A stretch of DNA of 64,000 nt from Candidatus Margulisiibacteriota bacterium (GCA_050250935.1 JBFWNS010000003.1:1-64000); one strand, 5' to 3'. Positions 1 through 12,232 are shown, counted from the first letter of the stretch. Made by a program: numbers and translations. The notes: a model not told the origin generated them from the sequence alone.

Positions 1-1246
1 CTGTTGTCACCACATGTTCGTAGCTCAGCTGTCGGCATAATTCGACCAAAGCACCAGGGTGTCCGTTGGCTTGGCTATTCAGATGGGTTTCTAAAAAAGC
101 AGGATCGGTTACCGACAAAGTTTGGGTTAAGTGATGGATCAGTTTAAGGCTGGCGTCGTGGCCAAGTGGGTCCAGTTCCACACGCTCGAAGCGTTGTTCC
201 AACGACTTCAGTTTATCCAAGGGTTTGTCTGTGCCCGCCACCAAAACCAAGCCTTTGTCGAGTAATGCCAAGGCCAAATCCTCGTCACTGGTTTTAAGGC
301 TGCTCAGTTCATCCACAAACAAAATGGGCCAGTGCAAAGGATCTCGGGCCAGCAGCCAGTCGGCCAGTTCCGAAGCCGTGGGTCGGCTGCCCAGTTTGTC
401 GGTGTAGTCGGTATCCAAAGCTTTGCACAAGCTTTCCAAAAAGGTTTTGGTTGGCGCTGGGCTGTCCACATAAAGGACATTGGGATACTGACGGGCAACG
501 TGTTTCAAAATCTGGGTTTTGCCAATTCCCAAGGGACCGGTCAGTAAAATGGGTCGGGCACGGTGGATGGCAGAGCGTACTTTTTCCACCACCTTGTCCC
601 GGCCAAACAGAACCTCGTCGCCCACAAGCAAAGGTCCGTTTTGGGATTGCAGCACCTGGCCTTTTTCGGGGACGGGTTCTTTAAACTGGCGCAGTAGTTT
701 TTGAGTCAGGGGCCTTGTGTCTAAGCTGGGTTCAACCGGGTTCTGAGGTGTCAGGTTTTGGTACCGTTTCAACCCTTCTTTGTCGCTAACCCCCAGCAAT
801 TTAGCGGCTTGTTTGAGGCTTATGTTGGGGTCTTTAAGCAATTGAATGGCATAGGTGTTGCGCAAGGTTTGGGCGCTGACCGGCTGGGAAATCTCGGCTT
901 TTTGGCCGTACTTTCTCAGCATTTGGTCGATGCCACGTTCAGACAAAGCACCCACCTTGCCTTTGGTGGTGATGAACAGTTTGTCTGTTTGGCAGTTCAC
1001 CCGTTCTTTGGACCAGGACACCAGGGCATCATAGGTTGGTTCGGTTAATGGCAAAACGCGGTCCCGTTTGCCAGGAATGTGGAGTTCTTTTGTCTCCCAA
1101 TGCACGTCGGTGAGACTCAGTTCGGTGGCTTCTTGAAGTTGCAGACCACAGCTTAAAAACAACAGCACGATGGCTTTGTCTCGGGGCTCTTCAATTTGTT
1201 GAAGAACGCTTCTGGCTTCGTAAAGGTTTAAAAAATCTATGCTCAA
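1..1246 (-). CDS. Degenerate tyrosine-recombinase catalytic domain fused to a P-loop (AAA+/STAND-like) ATPase; 3' end runs off the window
   Basis: Manual translation, absent from the ORF track. TTG at 1246 follows AAAGGGGG; frame open for 415 codons to base 1. Recombinase motifs RDKAIVLLFLSCGLQLQE, SAQTLRNTYA, AKLLGVSD, KRY; then LFGRD, Walker A GPLGIGKT (515-538), Walker B ILFVDE (308-325), and ANGHPGAL. Confidence 0.8.
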   Translation of the reverse strand, partial: MSIDFLNLYEARSVLQQIEEPRDKAIVLLFLSCGLQLQEATELSLTDVHWETKELHIPGKRDRVLPLTEPTYDALVSWSKERVNCQTDKLFITTKGKVGALSERGIDQMLRKYGQKAEISQPVSAQTLRNTYAIQLLKDPNISLKQAAKLLGVSDKEGLKRYQNLTPQNPVEPSLDTRPLTQKLLRQFKEPVPEKGQVLQSQNGPLLVGDEVLFGRDKVVEKVRSAIHRARPILLTGPLGIGKTQILKHVARQYPNVLYVDSPAPTKTFLESLCKALDTDYTDKLGSRPTASELADWLLARDPLHWPILFVDELSSLKTSDEDLALALLDKGLVLVAGTDKPLDKLKSLEQRFERVELDPLGHDASLKLIHHLTQTLSVTDPAFLETHLNSQANGHPGALVELCRQLSYEHVVTT

Positions 1247-1287: not shown

Positions 1288-1454
1288 ACCGGATGTAGTG
1301 AGAAAGTATACCGGTTGTAGTGATTCTTAAGCAAATGTTAGTGACATTTATATCCACTTTCGGTGGGCTTTTCCTGAGTGTCGAAGCTGGGATTCATCGC
1401 CTTTGAGTGTTATGCCTCTACGTGTCTACCTAGCTCCTAGAGGGTTGTAGTGAT
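1288..1454. repeat. Four copies of a (GG)WTGTAGTGA-like motif upstream of the recombinase-ATPase gene
   Basis: ACCGGATGTAGTGA 1288-1301, ACCGGTTGTAGTGA 1310-1323, ATGTTAGTGA ending 1344, GGTTGTAGTGAT 1443-1454. Confidence 0.6.
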
Positions 1455-1533
1455 CTTTCAATAATTCAAACAAGCGGTTCGAAGTAAATACCGACCGGGC
1501 TACCACTCTTCTTCTTTCTTCGAAACTTTTTTT

Positions 1534-1564
1534 ACCTCGCTTTTGGCGGGGTTTTTGCTTTTTT
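1534..1564 (+). terminator. Intrinsic terminator oriented on the + strand
   Basis: Hairpin ACCTCGC-TTTTG-GCGGGGT, with a G-U pair valid only on +, followed by a T-rich tract. Confidence 0.55.
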
Positions 1565-1593: not shown

Positions 1594-1935
1594 TTAATCC
1601 GGTCTTTTCGAACTGCGTTTGGGCTTGGGTTCTGGTAGTTCGGGTAGGGTGCAAGCGAATAAGCCACAGAGCCATTCTGGATCTTCCCAGCGGTCTTCAT
1701 CAATCAAAAAAGAAGGTTTGGCGCCGGAGTAGGCCGGGGCTTCGCAGACGTCTTCTTCCAAATACTGTCGGCCAGCGGGCGTGATTTTGACATAGAGTTG
1801 GTCATCGCAGACCAGGGCAATCACTTTGCCTTCCAGATAGAGGGCATATTCGCCAAACATTTTTTTGGCCATGATGCCGCCCAATTGGGCGAGTTGATCC
1901 AGCAAATAATCGATGGTTTCTTTGCGTGTCGACAT
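1594..1935 (-). CDS. TfoX/Sxy N-terminal domain protein
   Basis: KKMFGEYALYLEGKVIALVCDDQLYVK signature; 113 aa. Confidence 0.85.
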   Translation of the reverse strand: MSTRKETIDYLLDQLAQLGGIMAKKMFGEYALYLEGKVIALVCDDQLYVKITPAGRQYLEEDVCEAPAYSGAKPSFLIDEDRWEDPEWLCGLFACTLPELPEPKPKRSSKRPD

Positions 1936-1940
1936 GGTTT

Positions 1941-3518
1941 TTAGGCTTCTTTTTCTGGCAAGGTTGTGGCATTGCCGTCGCGGTGGGCTCTGTAGTGGGG
2001 GGACATGATCTCGATGCCATACTGGGCACAGGCATCTTGAATGTTTTGGTGAAGGGTGGAGTAGATTTCGGGTTGTTTATTGGCCTCTTGGGTATAGGCA
2101 TTGAGCTGATAGGATACATAAAAGTCGTTTAGGGCTGTTTGCAAAACAAAGGGTTCTGGGCTCGTGAGGATGTGCGGTGTTTTTGTGGCGGCGAAAATCA
2201 GGGCCTCGTGAACGGTTCTCCAGGGTGTGTCATAGCCGATGGTGACGGTGGTGTGAACAACCAAGCCCCGGTCTTTGGCATTGCTGCTGTAATTGATGGT
2301 GTGGCTGGTCATGATGGTCGAGTTGGGGACAGACACAATTTCGTTTTTGGGGGTTCGAATGCGGGTGACCAGCAAGGATTTTTCGATGATATCGCCTTCT
2401 GTTTCGCCAATTTTAACCCGGTCTCCAATCCGAAAAAGTCTCATGTAGGTTAATATCAACCCCGAGACGATGTTCGACAGCGAACTTGCAGATCCAAAAG
2501 TAAATAAAAAGCCCAAAAAAACAGACACGCCTTGAAACACCGGCGAGTTACTGCCCGGTAAATAGGGGAAAATCAGAACCAGCATAAACGCTGTTACCAA
2601 GATTCGGACAATTTGGTAGGTTGGGTTTGCCCAGTCTGCATAAAAATTAGGCAGTACCAAGGCCCCGGTTTCCAGCTCTGTTTTAAGGTAGTGAAGCCCC
2701 CTAAAAATGTACTTAAAAACCGTCACAATAATCAGAATGGTGATGACGTTTGGCAAATAGTGCCACACCGAAAACACAATATTCGACAAAGGGGTTAAGA
2801 CATAGCCCAACAAGGTGTCCGAAAAGCGGCGCGTCCAGGGTAAAACCCGAAACAACAACGGAAGCCCAAGATAGCTGATCAAGGCGATACAGCCCCATTT
2901 TAGAAGGGTAAGACCCGATTGTAACAACCGAATAATCTGCTCGATTTTGAGCAAGGTGTAGCCATTCACGGTTAAGGGCCGAATGCGTTTGCCTTGTTCG
3001 GCCAAGAGGGCCCGGTTTAAAAACCCAAAGAACCGCCAGATGACCCCAATCAAGGCAAAAATGCCCATGAGAACCCCACTGGCAACGGCGGATACCGCAA
3101 GCAGGTTTTTTTTGCTTGTTCCGGTTTGATAGTCGAGGACGGATTGGGTAATCCGTTTGGCATAGGTTTCGGCCAATTCCCGTTGGTCTTTTTGGCTTAG
3201 CAGGGCATCGTTTTTGGAAATACTGATGATGGTGAGAGTGCCAAGATTAATATCGATAAGCCCGTCTTCTTCCACCAGTTGAAGGGATTGTTGAGAGAAG
3301 GGTTTGGCATTTCCAAGATCGTGAATGCGTTTTGATATGGCCGCAGCCCGAGCGTCTGGCCCAAAGCTTCCAGACTTGGCATAAATATCGAAGAGTTTTT
3401 CGTGATAAAACCCATAAACAGGATAACCCGTTGGCTGGATTTCTTCTTTTGCAAACAGGGCGCTGCCCAAGCAAAGGGACAGAACAATGGCCATGACGAG
3501 GCTAAATCGTTTTTTCAC
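1941..3518 (-). CDS. MscS-family mechanosensitive channel with N-terminal periplasmic domain
   Basis: Several TM segments; SNIVSGLIL..RLFRIGDRVKIG..GDI..VPNS core; IEIMSPHY. Confidence 0.9.
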   Translation of the reverse strand: MKKRFSLVMAIVLSLCLGSALFAKEEIQPTGYPVYGFYHEKLFDIYAKSGSFGPDARAAAISKRIHDLGNAKPFSQQSLQLVEEDGLIDINLGTLTIISISKNDALLSQKDQRELAETYAKRITQSVLDYQTGTSKKNLLAVSAVASGVLMGIFALIGVIWRFFGFLNRALLAEQGKRIRPLTVNGYTLLKIEQIIRLLQSGLTLLKWGCIALISYLGLPLLFRVLPWTRRFSDTLLGYVLTPLSNIVFSVWHYLPNVITILIIVTVFKYIFRGLHYLKTELETGALVLPNFYADWANPTYQIVRILVTAFMLVLIFPYLPGSNSPVFQGVSVFLGFLFTFGSASSLSNIVSGLILTYMRLFRIGDRVKIGETEGDIIEKSLLVTRIRTPKNEIVSVPNSTIMTSHTINYSSNAKDRGLVVHTTVTIGYDTPWRTVHEALIFAATKTPHILTSPEPFVLQTALNDFYVSYQLNAYTQEANKQPEIYSTLHQNIQDACAQYGIEIMSPHYRAHRDGNATTLPEKEA

Positions 3519-6510: not shown

Positions 6511-7428
6511 TCAAAGAAAAGGTTGGCTTTGATTATTTTTGAGGAGCACAGCAATCTGTTTTCGGACTTGGAAATCGGTTCTGCTAGACCCAAAAGCTCT
6601 TGCCATTTTTGCCCATGCATTGCTTTTTCCTTGAGCGTAAAACGCCTTATAGATTTTTAAAAGATGTTTATTTTCCTCTTGTGTCCAAGAACCCCCTTTT
6701 AATTCTGGATCTAGTTTATTAGCCCACCTTTCCAAGCATTGCGCGGCAGATCGGGGGAGTTGTGTAAGCTTTCTTTGGGCCAATTGATGGGCAATTTCTG
6801 ACCACTTTAATGTAGGTTGGTTACGAATTTCTCGAAGGGAATCGTCTTCTGCTTTGCTCCATTTTTCGTGGCAACGTGGCTCTAGGGCCCTGATTCGGTG
6901 AAGGCATTGAGAGGGTTTTCGGGTTCCTACAGCTTGGCTGATTAGGTGCCATTGGGTTCCATATTGTTGGTGGGCGACCTGAAGTCGTTGGGTTTCGTCT
7001 TCTGTCCAAGGTCCTGAATTGTTGCCATCCTTGTGGGGTGCTGGCTGTGGGGCGCTGGCATGATGTTGCTTTGCTGCTCTTGTGGATGGTGCTGTTTTTG
7101 TTCGTTTGCGTGAAGCAGTTTCTTTGGTTGTTTCGGAATCAGAACTGGAAGCTGAATCGAATGTTTCAGAAGCTGCTAGTGCAGAGAGTAATTCGTTGGC
7201 TTGTAGGGCTGCTTTTCGTTGGGGTCTTGGTGTTGGTTGTTGATTCTTTAGGTCAGAGGCTGAGGGTTGCTCGGTTTGGTCTTTGTGAGGGGAGGAAGTT
7301 TCGGTGCCGGCATTCAGAATTGCAAAGATTGCCCTGATTCCGCTGTCGTCAGGCAATATTGGAAGGTCCAATAAATCTGGAAGGTCAAATTCAAAATTGG
7401 GTGTTGAAATGTGTTTGGTTAAGCTCAT
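6511..7428 (-). CDS. Eukaryote-like three-repeat Myb (R1R2R3-type) DNA-binding protein
   Basis: Three Trp-spaced repeats: GPWTEDET..YGTQWHLIS..RKPSQC; KWSKAEDD..KWSEIA..RSAAQCLERWANKLDP; GSWTQEEN..AWAKMA..RTD. Start taken at ATG 7428 (305 aa). Confidence 0.85.
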   Translation of the reverse strand: MSLTKHISTPNFEFDLPDLLDLPILPDDSGIRAIFAILNAGTETSSPHKDQTEQPSASDLKNQQPTPRPQRKAALQANELLSALAASETFDSASSSDSETTKETASRKRTKTAPSTRAAKQHHASAPQPAPHKDGNNSGPWTEDETQRLQVAHQQYGTQWHLISQAVGTRKPSQCLHRIRALEPRCHEKWSKAEDDSLREIRNQPTLKWSEIAHQLAQRKLTQLPRSAAQCLERWANKLDPELKGGSWTQEENKHLLKIYKAFYAQGKSNAWAKMARAFGSSRTDFQVRKQIAVLLKNNQSQPFL

Positions 7429-7433
7429 ACAAA

Positions 7434-7460
7434 TTATCGGATGGGTTAGGGTAAAATTGC
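7434..7460 (-). promoter_or_regulatory. Putative sigma28-like promoter of the Myb gene
   Basis: GCAATTTT-N11-TCCGATAA, 5 nt upstream of ATG 7428, which would give a leaderless mRNA. Confidence 0.45.
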
Positions 7461-7489
7461 AGGGTTTGAAGTTTTTTCTTCTAGTCCAT

Positions 7490-9736
7490 TCAAACTTCCA
7501 CCGGTATTTGCAACGCAGAGGCAGCACTGTGTGGTGTAGGCTGCGTATTCAAAGCGGATGCGGGTAGGGTTGGGGTGGGGTGCTGAGCGGATTTTTTTCG
7601 CGAACACAAAATAGCGGCTGCAATGATAGCTGCCAGTGTTACCCCACCTAAAATTACAGGAAGGGCAATCACAAAAAACGAATTGTCTTCACAGCCAAAC
7701 GACAAAAGCCGATTGCCATCGACGGGGGTAAACAAGTCGTCGGCTTGATCAAAAGGCGTGTTGGGCAGTTCGATGGTTCGCGGGCCTTGGCCTTCAGTCC
7801 AGAACTGTAGGCGGGTTCCCTGGGGTGTGGCCCAACCGGCAACGTCGACTGGGCTTCCTTCCATCGACGTGATTTGCCAACGCTTGTCGGGTTGTTCGGC
7901 GCTACGCCAGGTCCAACCGCCCGTTGTAAATTGCAAATGCAAGGGGCCGTTGTGAAAAATTGTGGCTGTGGTGTTGGCATAGTTGGCACCCAATCCCAAT
8001 CGAACCAAGGTTGGACAACGGCCAAATTGAAGGGTTTGGTTGACAGGGGCATCGTATAACAGGGTGGCGGATTCTGGGCCTTGAAATGTTCGGACGGGGT
8101 TGTCGGGCATGCCGGAAAAGATGTGTTGGGTTCTACGCTCCAATAGAGAGATTGCATAGACTATGGAAGGCTTACTGTTTTGCCAATCGTTTTGGGTGTG
8201 AAAAATGGTGGGGCTGTTGCTTAGTGCCCTCATATCGATATCGGAGCTGTCGATTAAACGATTTGAAGGTCGGTCTGTGGCCAAGATAGCGACCGGTTCA
8301 TTACGGTCAAAATTGGGGTTAATACCATAGGTAAGTCGTAGAAGTTGAAGATCTAGCGGACGAGGCGTTTCGGGATAGATACGAAGATTCGTGTTGGGAT
8401 CATACTGGGTGGGTCGTGATGAATCATCATAATAGGACATCATGGTTTGGTCGGTGAGTCCGTATAACGGAATTGGGTGATTAAAGCCTAGTGCATGTTC
8501 TATTTCATGCGCAGCCGCCAGCGCATTGTATGTTCCGGGTGCAAAAGAGGTGGCATCGTCAATTAGGGCTCTGTTGAAAAAGACCCGGTTTAATCGTTGA
8601 GATACAAAAGTGTTTGCCAAAGCAGGGTAATCGACCGTGTTGGAAAGTCCAAAGCACAAACTTTCGCGTGTGGGTGTTTCAGCCGGCTGAAAAGAAAGGG
8701 CAATGTGCTCTGAAAACCAACCCAGGACGCCTGAAATTTGTCTTTGCTGTTCGGCAGAAAAGGAAGTTGCACTGGGGTCGTAGATTCTGCAAGCCGAGTC
8801 CATATGGGAGACGTCGAAAGTATAGGTGTAATTTGTTGTGGGAAATGCTGGGTTTCCGCCTACGCGGGTGGCTGTTAACATGCCCAGGCTTTCCATATAT
8901 TCGAGGGTTCTTGGGTCTGGAAAATCGATGCCATCGCGGGGAAAGGCTGCCCAGAGTTTTGGTGCTGTCGACCAAGGACGCAGATCGCCCACTTGAAAAC
9001 CCGTTTCAAAAAGGTGGGTGTTGTCGGCCCCTTTTTCTATCATTTTTTGAACCACTTCGGGGGTCATTTCGGTGGTTTGAAGGGCTTGTTTTAACGGGGT
9101 GGTATCTGCGGGATAGCCGTTGTTTAAATCGGGGTTAAAGTCCAAAATCGTCTGCGCCACTTCGCGGCTGGATTGGCCAATGGCTAGGGTTACCATAGCG
9201 GGTGTTAGGAGGTCTTGGTCTTGGGTTAAAATGTCCCTGACAGCCGTGGCATTGCGATTTCGAATGGCTGTTTCCAGTTCCGAAGAAGAGACAGTTTCCA
9301 CTGTTTTAGGCGGCATTGGTTCAGGAATGGGGGCGTGGTGGGATGCTACAGCGCTGTGATCAGCTGGTGGAGAGTATCCTTCGATCGGAAATCCGTGGGG
9401 CATCGGTGGCGTGGTTACAAGCGATGGCGTCTCTATGTGGCCGTTCTGAAACGGAATAGTCAAAGGTCCACCGGGGGTGTTGGCCAGTAGCCCGCCTTTT
9501 CCCAAAGACGTGCCCACCGCCGATAGCGACGCATAAATTAAATAAGCCGTCGCCGCGGCTGCAGACCCACCCAATAAAGCAAGCGCTGCTGTTGAAGCGG
9601 TGGGGTTGACCCTGTTTCTGCCTGTTGCTCTGGCAGAATGGTTTGGGGTTTTAGGTGGCCTTGATGGCCGGATTGTTTGGGCTTCTTCGCCAATCCTTTT
9701 GTGGTGATTTGCAGCAAGTTGGTTTACGAGTCTCAT
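7490..9736 (-). CDS. Ankyrin-like repeat plus M10/serralysin-like metzincin protease with C-terminal TM (paralog A)
   Basis: TPLKQAL..EVVQKMIEKGAD ankyrin-like segment; HEIEHALGFNHP zinc motif; Met-turn TMMSY; PLDLQLLRLTYG; TM followed by CSRKK. Confidence 0.8.
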   Translation of the reverse strand: MRLVNQLAANHHKRIGEEAQTIRPSRPPKTPNHSARATGRNRVNPTASTAALALLGGSAAAATAYLIYASLSAVGTSLGKGGLLANTPGGPLTIPFQNGHIETPSLVTTPPMPHGFPIEGYSPPADHSAVASHHAPIPEPMPPKTVETVSSSELETAIRNRNATAVRDILTQDQDLLTPAMVTLAIGQSSREVAQTILDFNPDLNNGYPADTTPLKQALQTTEMTPEVVQKMIEKGADNTHLFETGFQVGDLRPWSTAPKLWAAFPRDGIDFPDPRTLEYMESLGMLTATRVGGNPAFPTTNYTYTFDVSHMDSACRIYDPSATSFSAEQQRQISGVLGWFSEHIALSFQPAETPTRESLCFGLSNTVDYPALANTFVSQRLNRVFFNRALIDDATSFAPGTYNALAAAHEIEHALGFNHPIPLYGLTDQTMMSYYDDSSRPTQYDPNTNLRIYPETPRPLDLQLLRLTYGINPNFDRNEPVAILATDRPSNRLIDSSDIDMRALSNSPTIFHTQNDWQNSKPSIVYAISLLERRTQHIFSGMPDNPVRTFQGPESATLLYDAPVNQTLQFGRCPTLVRLGLGANYANTTATIFHNGPLHLQFTTGGWTWRSAEQPDKRWQITSMEGSPVDVAGWATPQGTRLQFWTEGQGPRTIELPNTPFDQADDLFTPVDGNRLLSFGCEDNSFFVIALPVILGGVTLAAIIAAAILCSRKKSAQHPTPTLPASALNTQPTPHSAASALQIPVEV
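9446..9736 (-). repeat. 291-bp 5' module, copy 1 of 2
   Basis: Near-identical to 11942-12232 and of equal length. Confidence 0.9.
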
Positions 9737-9742
9737 GATGTT

Positions 9743-12232
9743 TTATACTTGGCTTGATCCTTGTTCTGGGATTGTATCGTCTTCGGTTCTATCGGTTAGG
9801 GATCCATCGGATAAGGCAGTAGGTTTTGTGATTATTGTTCCATCGTTGCCACTGTTTGTAGGGCTCTCGGCTTGTGTTTTAGTTGCTTCGTTTTCATTGT
9901 CGTTATCCGAAGCAGAGGTAAGGGTTCTTAGGGCAATATCTACCGGCGCATATGCAGTTTTGGGTTTGCAAGCGCGACATACGATGATGGTAATCACGAT
10001 TCCCAAAAGGGCCACGCCAGACAGTGCAAGGGGTAGGGCAATGTTTAGTATATCGGTGTCTATATCAGTGTCTGATGGATTCGATGGTTCTGAAGGCGTG
10101 CAAGGGAGTTGATAAAAATCCAGGGTATTTCCGATGCCCCTAAATAATGAATCGGCATTTTCGAAAGAAATGTTTGGCAATGCAATCGAACGGAAGCCAG
10201 AGGGACTAACTTGAATTTGAAGGGTTGTTCCGGGGTGGCCTGGCCATCCTGCAATTTCGACTGAAAAGCCTTCTGTTGAATTGATGGTCCACAGTTTTAC
10301 GGGTGTGCTGCCTTCCCAAGGGTGGGCAGCTCCCAAAACTTCCAAGTGCAGTTGAGACCCATAGAGGGTATCGAGAGTTTGGTTGTGTTCTGGACCGATT
10401 CCCAGTCTGACCAGTGCGGGACACCCAAATGAAAAGGTTTGGTTTACTGGGGCATCGTGAACAATGGCTGGTGCAGAAGGCCCTATCAAGTTCGTTACGG
10501 GGTTGTCTGGCATTCCCGAAACACTTTGACGCGTGTATGCGTAAGGATCCACCCCGCGAGTTACTCCGATCACGTTGGAGGCCTTGCTATTTTCCCAGTT
10601 GTTTTGTGTATGCCAGAGGACGGGGTCAGTGAGTCCGCTTAAATTTAGTCTAGAGCTGTCTATTAATTCATCGGATCCATAGTTGTCTATCACGTTGACC
10701 TCGCGGTTTCGATCGATTGGTCCAAGCCCAAACCATTGCCTAAAAATCAAAAGATCAGCAGGTCGAAGGGTTGATGGAAAATAAAATTGAGGGATATTGT
10801 AGTAGCCCATGACGGTTGCCCGGTTTTCGTTGTAAAGATCTCTAGGGTGTGTTAATGCTGGAAATTGGTGCCCCATTTCATGGAAGCAGGCCAAGTAGTT
10901 GAACTCTCCTGGCCTAAAAGTGCTGTTTAAATCGATTTTTTCAGGATTAAAAAAAATTCTGCTTCTGCCACTCTGGGTTGTGTAGTCAATCGGGAATTGG
11001 GCCTCTGCTAGGGCATAGGATGGTGTTTTTCCAATTCCCCAGCATAGGCGGGCGTCGCTTGCTGTGTCGGTCTCAAGGAAAGATAATCCAGTATGGTTTC
11101 CAATCCATTGCATGGTTAATCTTATGCCAGCTTGTTGATCGGGACTGAATGATTGGGCGTTGGTGTCGTATTCTTGACAGGGAGAGCCATCGCTTGTTGC
11201 ATCAAAGGTATAAGGGACGATGGTTTGGTCCGACCGAATTGGAACACCAAGGTTTGAAAGCGTTCCCAACGTTCTTAAATAGTTCAAGGTTTCTGCATCT
11301 GGAAAAGGTACGCCTGTCCTTGGAAAAACAGTCCAAAGGCCCAGTGTATCGACGCGCAATTGCAGGCCATTTTCAAAAATATCGCTCTTATCGGCCCCAA
11401 GTTCAATCATACGGCGTATAATCTCGGTTGGTAAATTAAAGTAGAGGGCCGTTTCCAGCGGTGGGGGGTCTAGGCTTTCATGATCGTTAACATTTAAGTT
11501 TAAGTCTAGCAGGGTTGAAACAATCTCTGGGTTCGAAACCCAAAGGGCAAAATTCAAGGTGTTTTTTTCTACAAGTTCAGGATGCTCGGTTACAAGCGTT
11601 CTAACCCCTTGTGCATCTTTAACTAGTATAGCCATTTTTAGAGGTGACTCGCTAATCTCTGGCAGTGAAAATCCAGATCGAGGCGAAGGATTGTGGGGAT
11701 GAAAAACATCGTCGATGGGACCCGTTTCTTCCCAACTTCGGCCTGGAGGAATCGTTTTTGTGTTTAATTCGGTGGTTGGTCGATCCACTGGAAGCGTTAA
11801 AGCGGCTCTTGTGGGTTTTGGGGTTCTTGTTGGTGGTGGGGGGACTTTTGCGTGGCCCCTAGGGTTTGTTGCTAATCTGGTTGCATTTTGATCGAACAGA
11901 TCTAAGGGATTGGGTTGATGGGTTAATAACGCGGCGGGATCCTGAAACGGAATAGCCAAAGGTCCACCGGGAGTGTTGGCCACTAGCTCCCCTTTTCCCA
12001 AAGACGTGCCCACCGCCGATAGCGACGCATAAATCAAATAAACTGTTGCCGCGGCCGCAGATCCGCCCAATAAAGCAAGCGCTGCTGTTGAAGCGGTGGG
12101 GTGGACCCTGTTTCCACCTGTTGCTCTGCCAGGATGGGTTGGGGCTTTGGGTGGCTTTGATGGCCGGATTGTTTGGGCTTCTTCGCCAATCCTTCTGTGG
12201 TGATTCGCAGCAAGTTGGTTTTCGAGTCTCAA
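9743..12232 (-). CDS. Ankyrin-like repeat plus metzincin protease with C-terminal TM (paralog B)
   Basis: TTG start after AAGGGGA; PPLETAL..EIIRRMIELGAD; HEMGHQFPALTHP; Met-turn TVMGY; TM followed by CRACKPK. Confidence 0.8.
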   Translation of the reverse strand: MRLENQLAANHHRRIGEEAQTIRPSKPPKAPTHPGRATGGNRVHPTASTAALALLGGSAAAATVYLIYASLSAVGTSLGKGELVANTPGGPLAIPFQDPAALLTHQPNPLDLFDQNATRLATNPRGHAKVPPPPTRTPKPTRAALTLPVDRPTTELNTKTIPPGRSWEETGPIDDVFHPHNPSPRSGFSLPEISESPLKMAILVKDAQGVRTLVTEHPELVEKNTLNFALWVSNPEIVSTLLDLNLNVNDHESLDPPPLETALYFNLPTEIIRRMIELGADKSDIFENGLQLRVDTLGLWTVFPRTGVPFPDAETLNYLRTLGTLSNLGVPIRSDQTIVPYTFDATSDGSPCQEYDTNAQSFSPDQQAGIRLTMQWIGNHTGLSFLETDTASDARLCWGIGKTPSYALAEAQFPIDYTTQSGRSRIFFNPEKIDLNSTFRPGEFNYLACFHEMGHQFPALTHPRDLYNENRATVMGYYNIPQFYFPSTLRPADLLIFRQWFGLGPIDRNREVNVIDNYGSDELIDSSRLNLSGLTDPVLWHTQNNWENSKASNVIGVTRGVDPYAYTRQSVSGMPDNPVTNLIGPSAPAIVHDAPVNQTFSFGCPALVRLGIGPEHNQTLDTLYGSQLHLEVLGAAHPWEGSTPVKLWTINSTEGFSVEIAGWPGHPGTTLQIQVSPSGFRSIALPNISFENADSLFRGIGNTLDFYQLPCTPSEPSNPSDTDIDTDILNIALPLALSGVALLGIVITIIVCRACKPKTAYAPVDIALRTLTSASDNDNENEATKTQAESPTNSGNDGTIITKPTALSDGSLTDRTEDDTIPEQGSSQV
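11942..12232 (-). repeat. 291-bp 5' module, copy 2 of 2
   Basis: Near-identical to 9446-9736. Confidence 0.9.

Follow-up and report, generated by a model that had tools for sequence, protein, structure and literature searches.

A catalytically degenerate tyrosine-recombinase domain joined to an AAA+ ATPase and a predicted membrane anchor at the end of a Margulisbacteria island

Described relatives of the fusion protein

Recombinase folds that have lost catalysis and serve as DNA binders are already known from MrpR, Ndc10, DUF3504 and YnbA. MrpR, a recombinase-fold repressor of SPbeta, is described as having lost Arg and His residues of the active site while retaining the Tyr, which serves folding and DNA binding, recombination being absent, and as binding a repeated element in a prophage that is excised by a serine recombinase (PMC10516654). 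In eukaryotes, the Crypton-derived Ndc10/Cbf2, Gcr1 and DUF3504 proteins carry a recombinase domain without a catalytic site in a DNA-associated context (PMC3212892); they have neither ATPase nor membrane anchor. The streptococcal XerD-like protein YnbA is portrayed as a conserved recombinase that lacks the catalytic residues and is inactive on dif (PMC1914069); it is encoded by a chromosomal core gene and is not fused to another domain. The MOB-M relaxases TcpM, MobK and MpsA consist of an orphan catalytic domain with a target region upstream of the gene (PMC8152469; bioRxiv 10.64898/2026.01.13.699239), but they keep their catalytic set, are unfused and rely on a type IV system.

The protein described here resembles MrpR in its recombinase fold, in the replacement of Arg and His and in the retention of Tyr, a combination reported for MrpR in PMC10516654. 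Both MrpR and SroF were among its fold matches (Z 13.5 and 14.8, respectively); the likeness to SroF (phi3T), which is known here by its structure title, rests on this structure match. The core-binding domain, stand-alone architecture and SPbeta-like phage setting of these proteins are, however, missing: whereas MrpR has a core-binding domain, is soluble and stands alone, the present family has no core-binding domain and possesses the second catalytic Arg, an ATPase and an anchor. What is new, in that we found no description of it in the open-access literature, is the fusion to a membrane AAA+ protein, the pairing of degenerate and intact clades, phased repeats linked to a residue-base rule, and a backbone of ATPase and YdjM.

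The fusion gene and the island that it opens

The window, a stretch of 64,000 nucleotides, opens contig C3 of a 1.95 Mb genome. On its minus strand, a frame at 2-1246 with a TTG start at 1246 continues for 415 codons without a stop and runs off the start of the contig, where the 3' end of the gene is lost; because it runs off the contig, the ORF track missed it. The preliminary description had proposed a single open frame that joins a degenerate recombinase domain to a P-loop ATPase. This proved correct (415 aa, stop-free), and each of the motifs that it listed was found in the frame, i.e., CGLQLQE, QTLR, LLGV and KRY, together with, on the minus strand, the GR motif LFGRD (596-610), Walker A GPLGIGKT (515-538), Walker B ILFVDE (308-325) and the GxP motif NGHPG (53-67).

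By Pfam, Phage_integrase (PF00589) covered residues 12-167 (E 2.8e-17; 63.5 bits against a cut-off of 27.1) and AAA_22 residues 229-325 (E 3.7e-9). Combined with motif alignment and fold matches, these results placed a tyrosine-recombinase catalytic domain at residues 12-167 (746-1213, minus strand) and an AAA+ ATPase domain at residues 213-415 (2-610, minus strand). In an AlphaFold model of the fusion protein (pLDDT 80.7, pTM 0.49), residues 1-171 matched XerA (Z 21.7, rmsd 1.9, 168 aligned), while residues ~200-415 matched Cdc6/Orc1 (Z 17.3, rmsd 3.1, 208 aligned) and TnsC (Z 16.5, rmsd 3.2, 213 aligned), with MuB (Z 15.7) and the NLR ZAR1 (Z 14.1) lower down. The Pfam and XerA matches bear out the XerC/D catalytic fold that had been suggested for the ~165 N-terminal residues, and the core-binding domain is absent as claimed, since only 35 residues precede the first-Arg site at residue 36. 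The best NCBIfam matches were of the XerC/XerD/XerA type, all far below their cut-offs (for XerA, 85 versus 220 bits); the YnbA family was a weak match. Thus, although the catalytic-domain fold is shared with XerC, XerD and XerA, the protein differs from them in lacking a core-binding domain, in the replacement of three of the five catalytic residues, and in having candidate sites that are direct and not inverted.

Protein searches yielded nine matches, namely the genome's own second copy and eight full-length proteins of 485-499 aa with 38-49% identity. The homologs extend ~70-80 residues beyond the part held in the window, into one or two predicted membrane helices, and the full-length relatives are predicted to carry a C-terminal two-helix membrane anchor. 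The lost C-terminal tail was sought in the rest of the genome, where nothing was found. On contig C15, the second copy shows 97% identity, is broken off at the same base, and differs from that on C3 by 20 synonymous and 13 non-synonymous codons, with no stop. In a separately assembled public run, possibly of the source sample, one contig spans 1-1354 and extends 1,161 bases past position 1, at a depth of 28.6 compared with ~14 in each of two upstream branches. The named relatives of the protein belong to WOR-1 and Margulisiibacteriota; the search for the same fusion elsewhere, which had been recommended, found it in 29 of 146 genomes from the window's phylum, Margulisbacteria, in many families, with some copies split or stopped. 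No description of a recombinase domain fused to a membrane-anchored AAA+ ATPase was found in the open-access literature.

STAND NTPases carry a winged-helix domain and a sensor or superstructure region after the GxP motif. The ATPase half shares their GR, Walker and GxP motifs, a set that the preliminary description had called typical of STAND and related AAA+ ATPases. In all seven full-length homologs measured, however, the GxP motif lies 34 residues ahead of the motif with which the membrane tail opens, leaving no space for a winged-helix or sensor domain, and the ATPase is therefore not a STAND protein; the nSTAND Pfam scores were also below cut-off, and sensor repeats are lacking. It has the AAA+ fold with a lid in common with Cdc6/Orc1, TnsC and MuB, but in this family a membrane anchor follows the lid. 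Because 36 of 40 loci have DN in Walker B, where the window has DE, ATP turnover is uncertain, and on the evidence of these motifs the ATPase is more likely to be a nucleotide switch than a fast motor.

The gene lies close to an island boundary. At 1497-1531 (plus strand) there is a duplicated 3' end of tRNA-Glu(TTC) with the bases that follow it, matching C4 1854-1773, which is likely to be the core of an attachment site; a terminator-like hairpin comes after it (1534-1552, plus strand). The intact tRNA-Glu on C4 adjoins a large serine recombinase, and reads or contigs of three of four runs connect the tRNA T-arm to position 1497. On C15, the second fusion copy adjoins another serine recombinase, a DUF7222 gene and a DprA-like gene. 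Both recombinases possess Resolvase, Recombinase and Zn-ribbon domains, and the island at locus L007 similarly ends in a serine recombinase and tRNA-Glu. Tycheposon-like islands are tRNA-targeting and carry a large serine recombinase; the island shows both a large serine recombinase and a duplicated tRNA 3' end. At the junction upstream of the C15 copy no tRNA end matched at ≥14 bases, a tRNA occurred within 1.5 kb upstream in four of 28 loci with enough sequence, no empty-site relative was found among 20 searched, and Rfam gave no match on 1200-1700. Inspection of gene neighbourhoods, as had been advised, revealed a mobile-element backbone in which the fusion gene is the first gene of the island and a fixed component of its end, while the cargo varies and often includes restriction-modification genes. 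A prophage reading is not supported, as viral collections gave one weak ATPase-only locus and 50,697 phage records contained no ATPase-anchor match. Outside the island, the flanking chromosome at 1594-3518 encodes a TfoX_N protein and an MscS-family channel. Two more large serine recombinases (C2 260468-261469 and C1 28128-29024), one just downstream of tmRNA and the other near tRNA-Met, represent more islands in this genome.

Catalytic loss, upstream repeats and residue 108

In the window protein, Gln36 replaces the first catalytic Arg, Gln126 the His and Val153 the His/Trp, while Arg129 and Tyr162 are kept; Tyr162 sits nine residues past the His/Trp site, as in intact relatives, and the catalytic-Lys loop is three residues shorter than that of XerA. 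The Arg-Lys-His-Arg-His/Trp and Tyr set of active tyrosine recombinases is thus incomplete, and the substitutions noted at the outset (Arg to Gln, HxxR to QTLR, LLGH to LLGV, with Tyr kept) were all confirmed. The window clade is represented by 68 loci after dereplication (90 before). Of these 68, three keep the first Arg, seven the His of HxxR and none the His/Trp, whereas all 68 keep the second Arg and 64 the Tyr, the other four having Phe. Of 780 pairs from 40 loci, 23 were usable (dS 0.05-1.5), and these gave a dN/dS for the recombinase domain of 0.029-0.185 (median 0.061); in 40 loci this domain was better conserved than the ATPase (mean identity 60% versus 54%). The substitutions are therefore conserved with dN/dS below 1 (0.03-0.19, with losses across the 68 loci), a point that the preliminary description had asked to be checked; catalytic loss is ancient and maintained by purifying selection, not decay. 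At three loci of genome G096 (L106, L120, L123) the first Arg is kept and both His are lost, which may represent intermediates of catalytic loss. At L107, L108, L121 and L122, Phe replaces the nucleophile Tyr, yet the triple repeat described below is kept.

A sister clade, whose few named members are Bacteroidota (Larkinella, Spirosoma, Flavobacterium, Flammeovirga), has the same recombinase-ATPase-anchor fusion and a YdjM neighbour. It differs in that 111 of its 114 members keep Arg-His-Arg-His-Tyr, and in having no triple repeat in the loci tested. A Larkinella protein aligned end to end with the window clade (hhalign probability 99.75, 469 columns). Since this clade combines the same fusion with a full catalytic set, the fusion is independent of catalytic loss. 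The possibility raised earlier, that homologs keep the full set and the window copy is merely decaying, hence fails for the window clade, although the sister clade does keep the set. In a quick ATPase-anchor tree, 22 degenerate rows clustered together (support 92, not starred), separate from the intact rows and from most unfused ones; trees were built by quick and FastTree methods. The sister-clade fusions are annotated merely as integrases, and no study of them was found in the open-access literature. Intact and dead clades within one fusion offer a natural pair showing an enzyme turning into a DNA reader.

Upstream of the gene, three direct repeats (1296-1344, minus strand) form a candidate binding site, with TCACTA cores at 1344-1339, 1323-1318 and 1301-1296 and spacings of 21 and 22 bp. 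Within the genome, the triple pattern occurs on C3 and C15 only; a further exact copy of the 12-base repeat lies at 1443-1454 (plus strand), at 1452, where C3-C15 identity ends. The repeat unit is bipartite. Without any seed, triples were recovered in 22 of 37 dereplicated upstream regions at p≤0.05 against dinucleotide shuffles, nearly always spaced 22 then 21, and a triple score of ≥19 was reached in 16 of the 37 regions compared with two of 150 control upstream regions. None of the six intact-clade or unfused loci tested carried the triple repeat. Using a matrix seeded on a repeat core that was picked by eye after seeing the data, 47 of 68 loci scored ≥10, as against five of 680 shuffles, and 21 of the 68 fell below this threshold; the window's own triple scores only 12.1. 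In a held-out test, distal triples were found in eight of the 21 loci that have no proximal one, but in none of 60 control 6-kb windows, and insertion of genes between the repeats and the fusion gene leaves the repeats in place at the end of the island. Many loci have sigma-70-like -35/-10 boxes next to or overlapping the repeats, with a widely varying distance to the -10 box; no sigma-70-like promoter was found at 1200-1620 of the window.

The predicted recognition helix, which we take to be equivalent to helix J of Cre, comprises residues 102-113 (908-943, minus strand) according to the model, the alignment and co-variation. Within it, residue 108 lies in the helix aligned with the XerA LSPKTVWRLVKKYG stretch, and Arg104 and residue 108 would correspond to residues 259 and 263 of Cre helix J, which are reported to decide the choice between loxP and rox (PMC7438526). 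In leave-one-out analysis over 45 loci, residue 108 predicted the repeats' variable base correctly in 41 and was the best of 404 columns (next best, 33), the variable base being excluded from the site score. His was paired with A in 20 of 21 loci, Lys with C in 15 of 16, and Tyr with G in six of six. Among the held-out distal loci, five of six with Lys show C; the disagreements are L007, the single His locus, with C-A-C, and L037 (Lys), with A-T-C. The window itself has Gln at this position, for which there is no rule (base C in the window, A in L029). On a tree built without the helix that carries residue 108, the His and Lys groups are interspersed and no independent pair runs the wrong way, but the tree-aware test is not significant, with four independent pairs for His-A (median p 0.125), three for Lys-C and one for Tyr-G. 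Another element-encoded or host protein could read the repeats, with residue and base both following descent. At L030 and L037, Asn takes the place of the usual Arg104 and the repeat core changes from C to T in two of three copies; this is a possible second residue-base pair, in one lineage only. The predicted site and the residue-base rule make the idea of DNA reading testable.

Backbone partners and competing readings

A gene for a YdjM-family membrane protein lies downstream on the same strand in 41 of the 44 loci with 4 kb of downstream sequence, and a Wza-like Poly_export gene within 8 kb downstream in 34 of 38. This genome contains two YdjM 3' halves cut at one point (C14 2-829 and C10 15769-16596), with a Poly_export gene also on C14; because the shared stretch between them and the fusion gene is unassembled here, we infer the link from relatives. 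For the ATPase-anchor part of one relative and its YdjM partner, complex prediction scored 0.36 against 0.00 for the best control, which lends weak support, passing scores of ≤0.60 having been given by 18 of 157 solved complexes as well as by each of the two mismatches (of 215) that passed. The runs shared ≥74% of contacts, with a partner pLDDT of ≥74. The YdjM partner's C-terminal portion had no Atlas match and no Foldseek match at E≤0.001, its resemblances being limited to a barrel of the TrmB type (Z 11.5, rmsd 1.7, 81 aligned) and to coiled coils of a generic kind; likeness to a periplasmic adaptor was dismissed, the MacA match (E 0.37) not being evidence.

The ATPase-anchor module also occurs unfused, with matches on 42 plasmids, 41 of which are typed non-mobilizable. 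All seven plasmid regions examined carry a YdjM-type 'metal-dependent hydrolase' gene; pSYSX additionally has a HerA/CedD-like DUF87 ATPase and a thermonuclease, and pL4C a TolC-like gene. In the open-access literature we found no assigned role for the YdjM family or this ATPase family, and no description of the pair. With a backbone of membrane AAA+ ATPase and YdjM on 'non-mobilizable' plasmids, the laboratory plasmids pSYSX (Synechocystis) and pL4C (Thermus) included, the spread and persistence of such elements become testable.

A stand-alone paralogue of the island's Wza-like gene lies at C1 71750-72388, near dnaG-rpoD and without other backbone genes. Rhs-like frames with short downstream genes are present at C2 1-3300, C9 55200-68831, C10 1-3728 and C14 2257-4257 and on C13 and C17; the Rhs-like repeats over these six contigs break the assembly and, on C14, abut the island's Wza-like gene.

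Our preferred reading, to which we would give an even chance, is that the dead recombinase domain, carried on an AAA+ ATPase with a predicted membrane anchor, binds the repeats at its own island end, represses the main promoter and holds the DNA end at a YdjM membrane complex. The recombinase-fold domain would read the three phased repeats directly through helix J, and AAA+ oligomers may set several such domains on repeats two helical turns apart. The bound complex would repress the first and main promoter of the island until released under the control of nucleotide or a partner, and the anchor would tether the island end to a membrane complex in which the YdjM-family partner likely takes part. 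The island's serine recombinase probably carries out both integration and excision; if that enzyme moves the island, the tyrosine recombinase would therefore be freed from catalysis, as in MrpR. The earlier suggestion of a fold repurposed as a DNA-binding or sensing module on an NTP switch accordingly stands in so far as the dead fold is conserved and most likely binds DNA, but its extension to defence is unsupported.

The reading that comes nearest, and which is in part compatible with repression and tethering, makes DNA transfer or segregation the main job: a relaxase-free, type-IV-free machine, built of ATPase-anchor, YdjM-family protein and a Wza- or TolC-like channel, would move the island once excised, with the dead domain as its DNA adaptor and the repeats serving either for loading or as a centromere. 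We consider this rather unlikely. The presence of the ATPase on 42 plasmids, 41 of them typed non-mobilizable, hints at an unknown transfer system, and the YdjM-type gene in seven of seven plasmid regions, the DUF87 ATPase and thermonuclease of pSYSX and the TolC-like gene of pL4C point the same way. So do the best ATPase fold matches, which act on DNA (Cdc6/Orc1, TnsC, MuB), the persistence of the repeats at the island end despite inserted genes, and the occurrence of the fusion in 29 of 146 genomes and many families, with two copies in this genome. The unfused members, however, have no fused DNA-binding domain, and the triple repeat is absent from all six loci tested that are intact or unfused; Pfam does not place the ATPase in the HerA/FtsK/TraD coupling type, and the YdjM partner's C-terminal portion belongs to no clear family. 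A wider proposal, also unlikely in our judgement, is that ATPase-anchor, YdjM and a Wza/TolC-like channel constitute an undescribed relaxase-free, type-IV-free DNA transfer machine of plasmids and islands in at least six phyla, whose ATPase captured the recombinase domain in Margulisbacteria as an adaptor with a one-residue-one-base code, while Bacteroidota keep the domain intact. A replication initiator, combining AAA+ with iteron-like repeats, was rejected, as two carrier plasmids have their own Rep and the unfused ATPases have no DNA domain.

It is decidedly improbable that the protein is an atypical MOB-M relaxase of the TcpM, MobK or MpsA type that nicks beside the repeats with its kept Tyr and carries a membrane coupling ATPase of its own as fusion partner. 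Those proteins are likewise described without a core-binding domain, with the MobK oriT just upstream of the gene (PMC8152469), and here 64 of 68 loci keep the Tyr and all 68 the second Arg; a relaxase would suit the intact sister clade better. For TcpM, only the Tyr is reportedly required. In the alignment, however, TcpM has its Arg, His, Arg, His and Tyr at the catalytic positions, whereas the window clade lacks three of these, and P0001 had no significant BLAST match to it. MpsA is said to keep its catalytic residues (PMC6414798), the conserved catalytic pentad with its nucleophile Tyr is not intact in the window clade, the four of 68 loci with Phe for Tyr still keep the triple repeat, and MrpR offers a precedent for a Tyr that serves folding and DNA binding without recombination (PMC10516654). 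An anti-phage sensor, in which a DNA-sensing domain on an NTPase switch triggers a membrane partner, is very improbable. Restriction-modification, Schlafen and SNF2 genes are common as downstream cargo and NLR resistosomes appear among the fold matches, but PADLOC 2.0 assigned no family to P0001, P0011 or either partner and gave one marginal ATPase match (E 1e-4) for P0003; the gene is a fixed backbone while the cargo changes, winged-helix and sensor domains are missing, and a matched repeat at its own promoter is not expected of a sensor. We assign next to no probability to a decaying integrase remnant or an assembly chimera. The contig end does cut the gene, and certain relatives are split or contain a stop (e.g., L014, L015). 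Against this, the eight full-length homologs at 38-49% identity are fused, the same residue losses recur across 68 loci, dN/dS is <0.2, the two in-genome copies have no stop and differ by 20 synonymous versus 13 non-synonymous changes, and an independent contig crosses the domain junction; homologs known only as two separate genes, which the preliminary description had named as a sign of assembly error, were thus not what was found. The homologs, the clade-wide losses and dN/dS refute a remnant or chimera for the whole family.

Elsewhere in the window, two tandem paralogues of 748 and 829 aa (7490-9736 and 9743-12232, minus strand) carry HExxH-like motifs, with hydrophobic segments close to either end; the former has no Pfam match. 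A 338-aa bacterial ORF at 6511-7527 (minus strand) carries three Myb/SANT repeats (Myb_DNA-bind_6, E 2.6e-23), a eukaryote-like domain.
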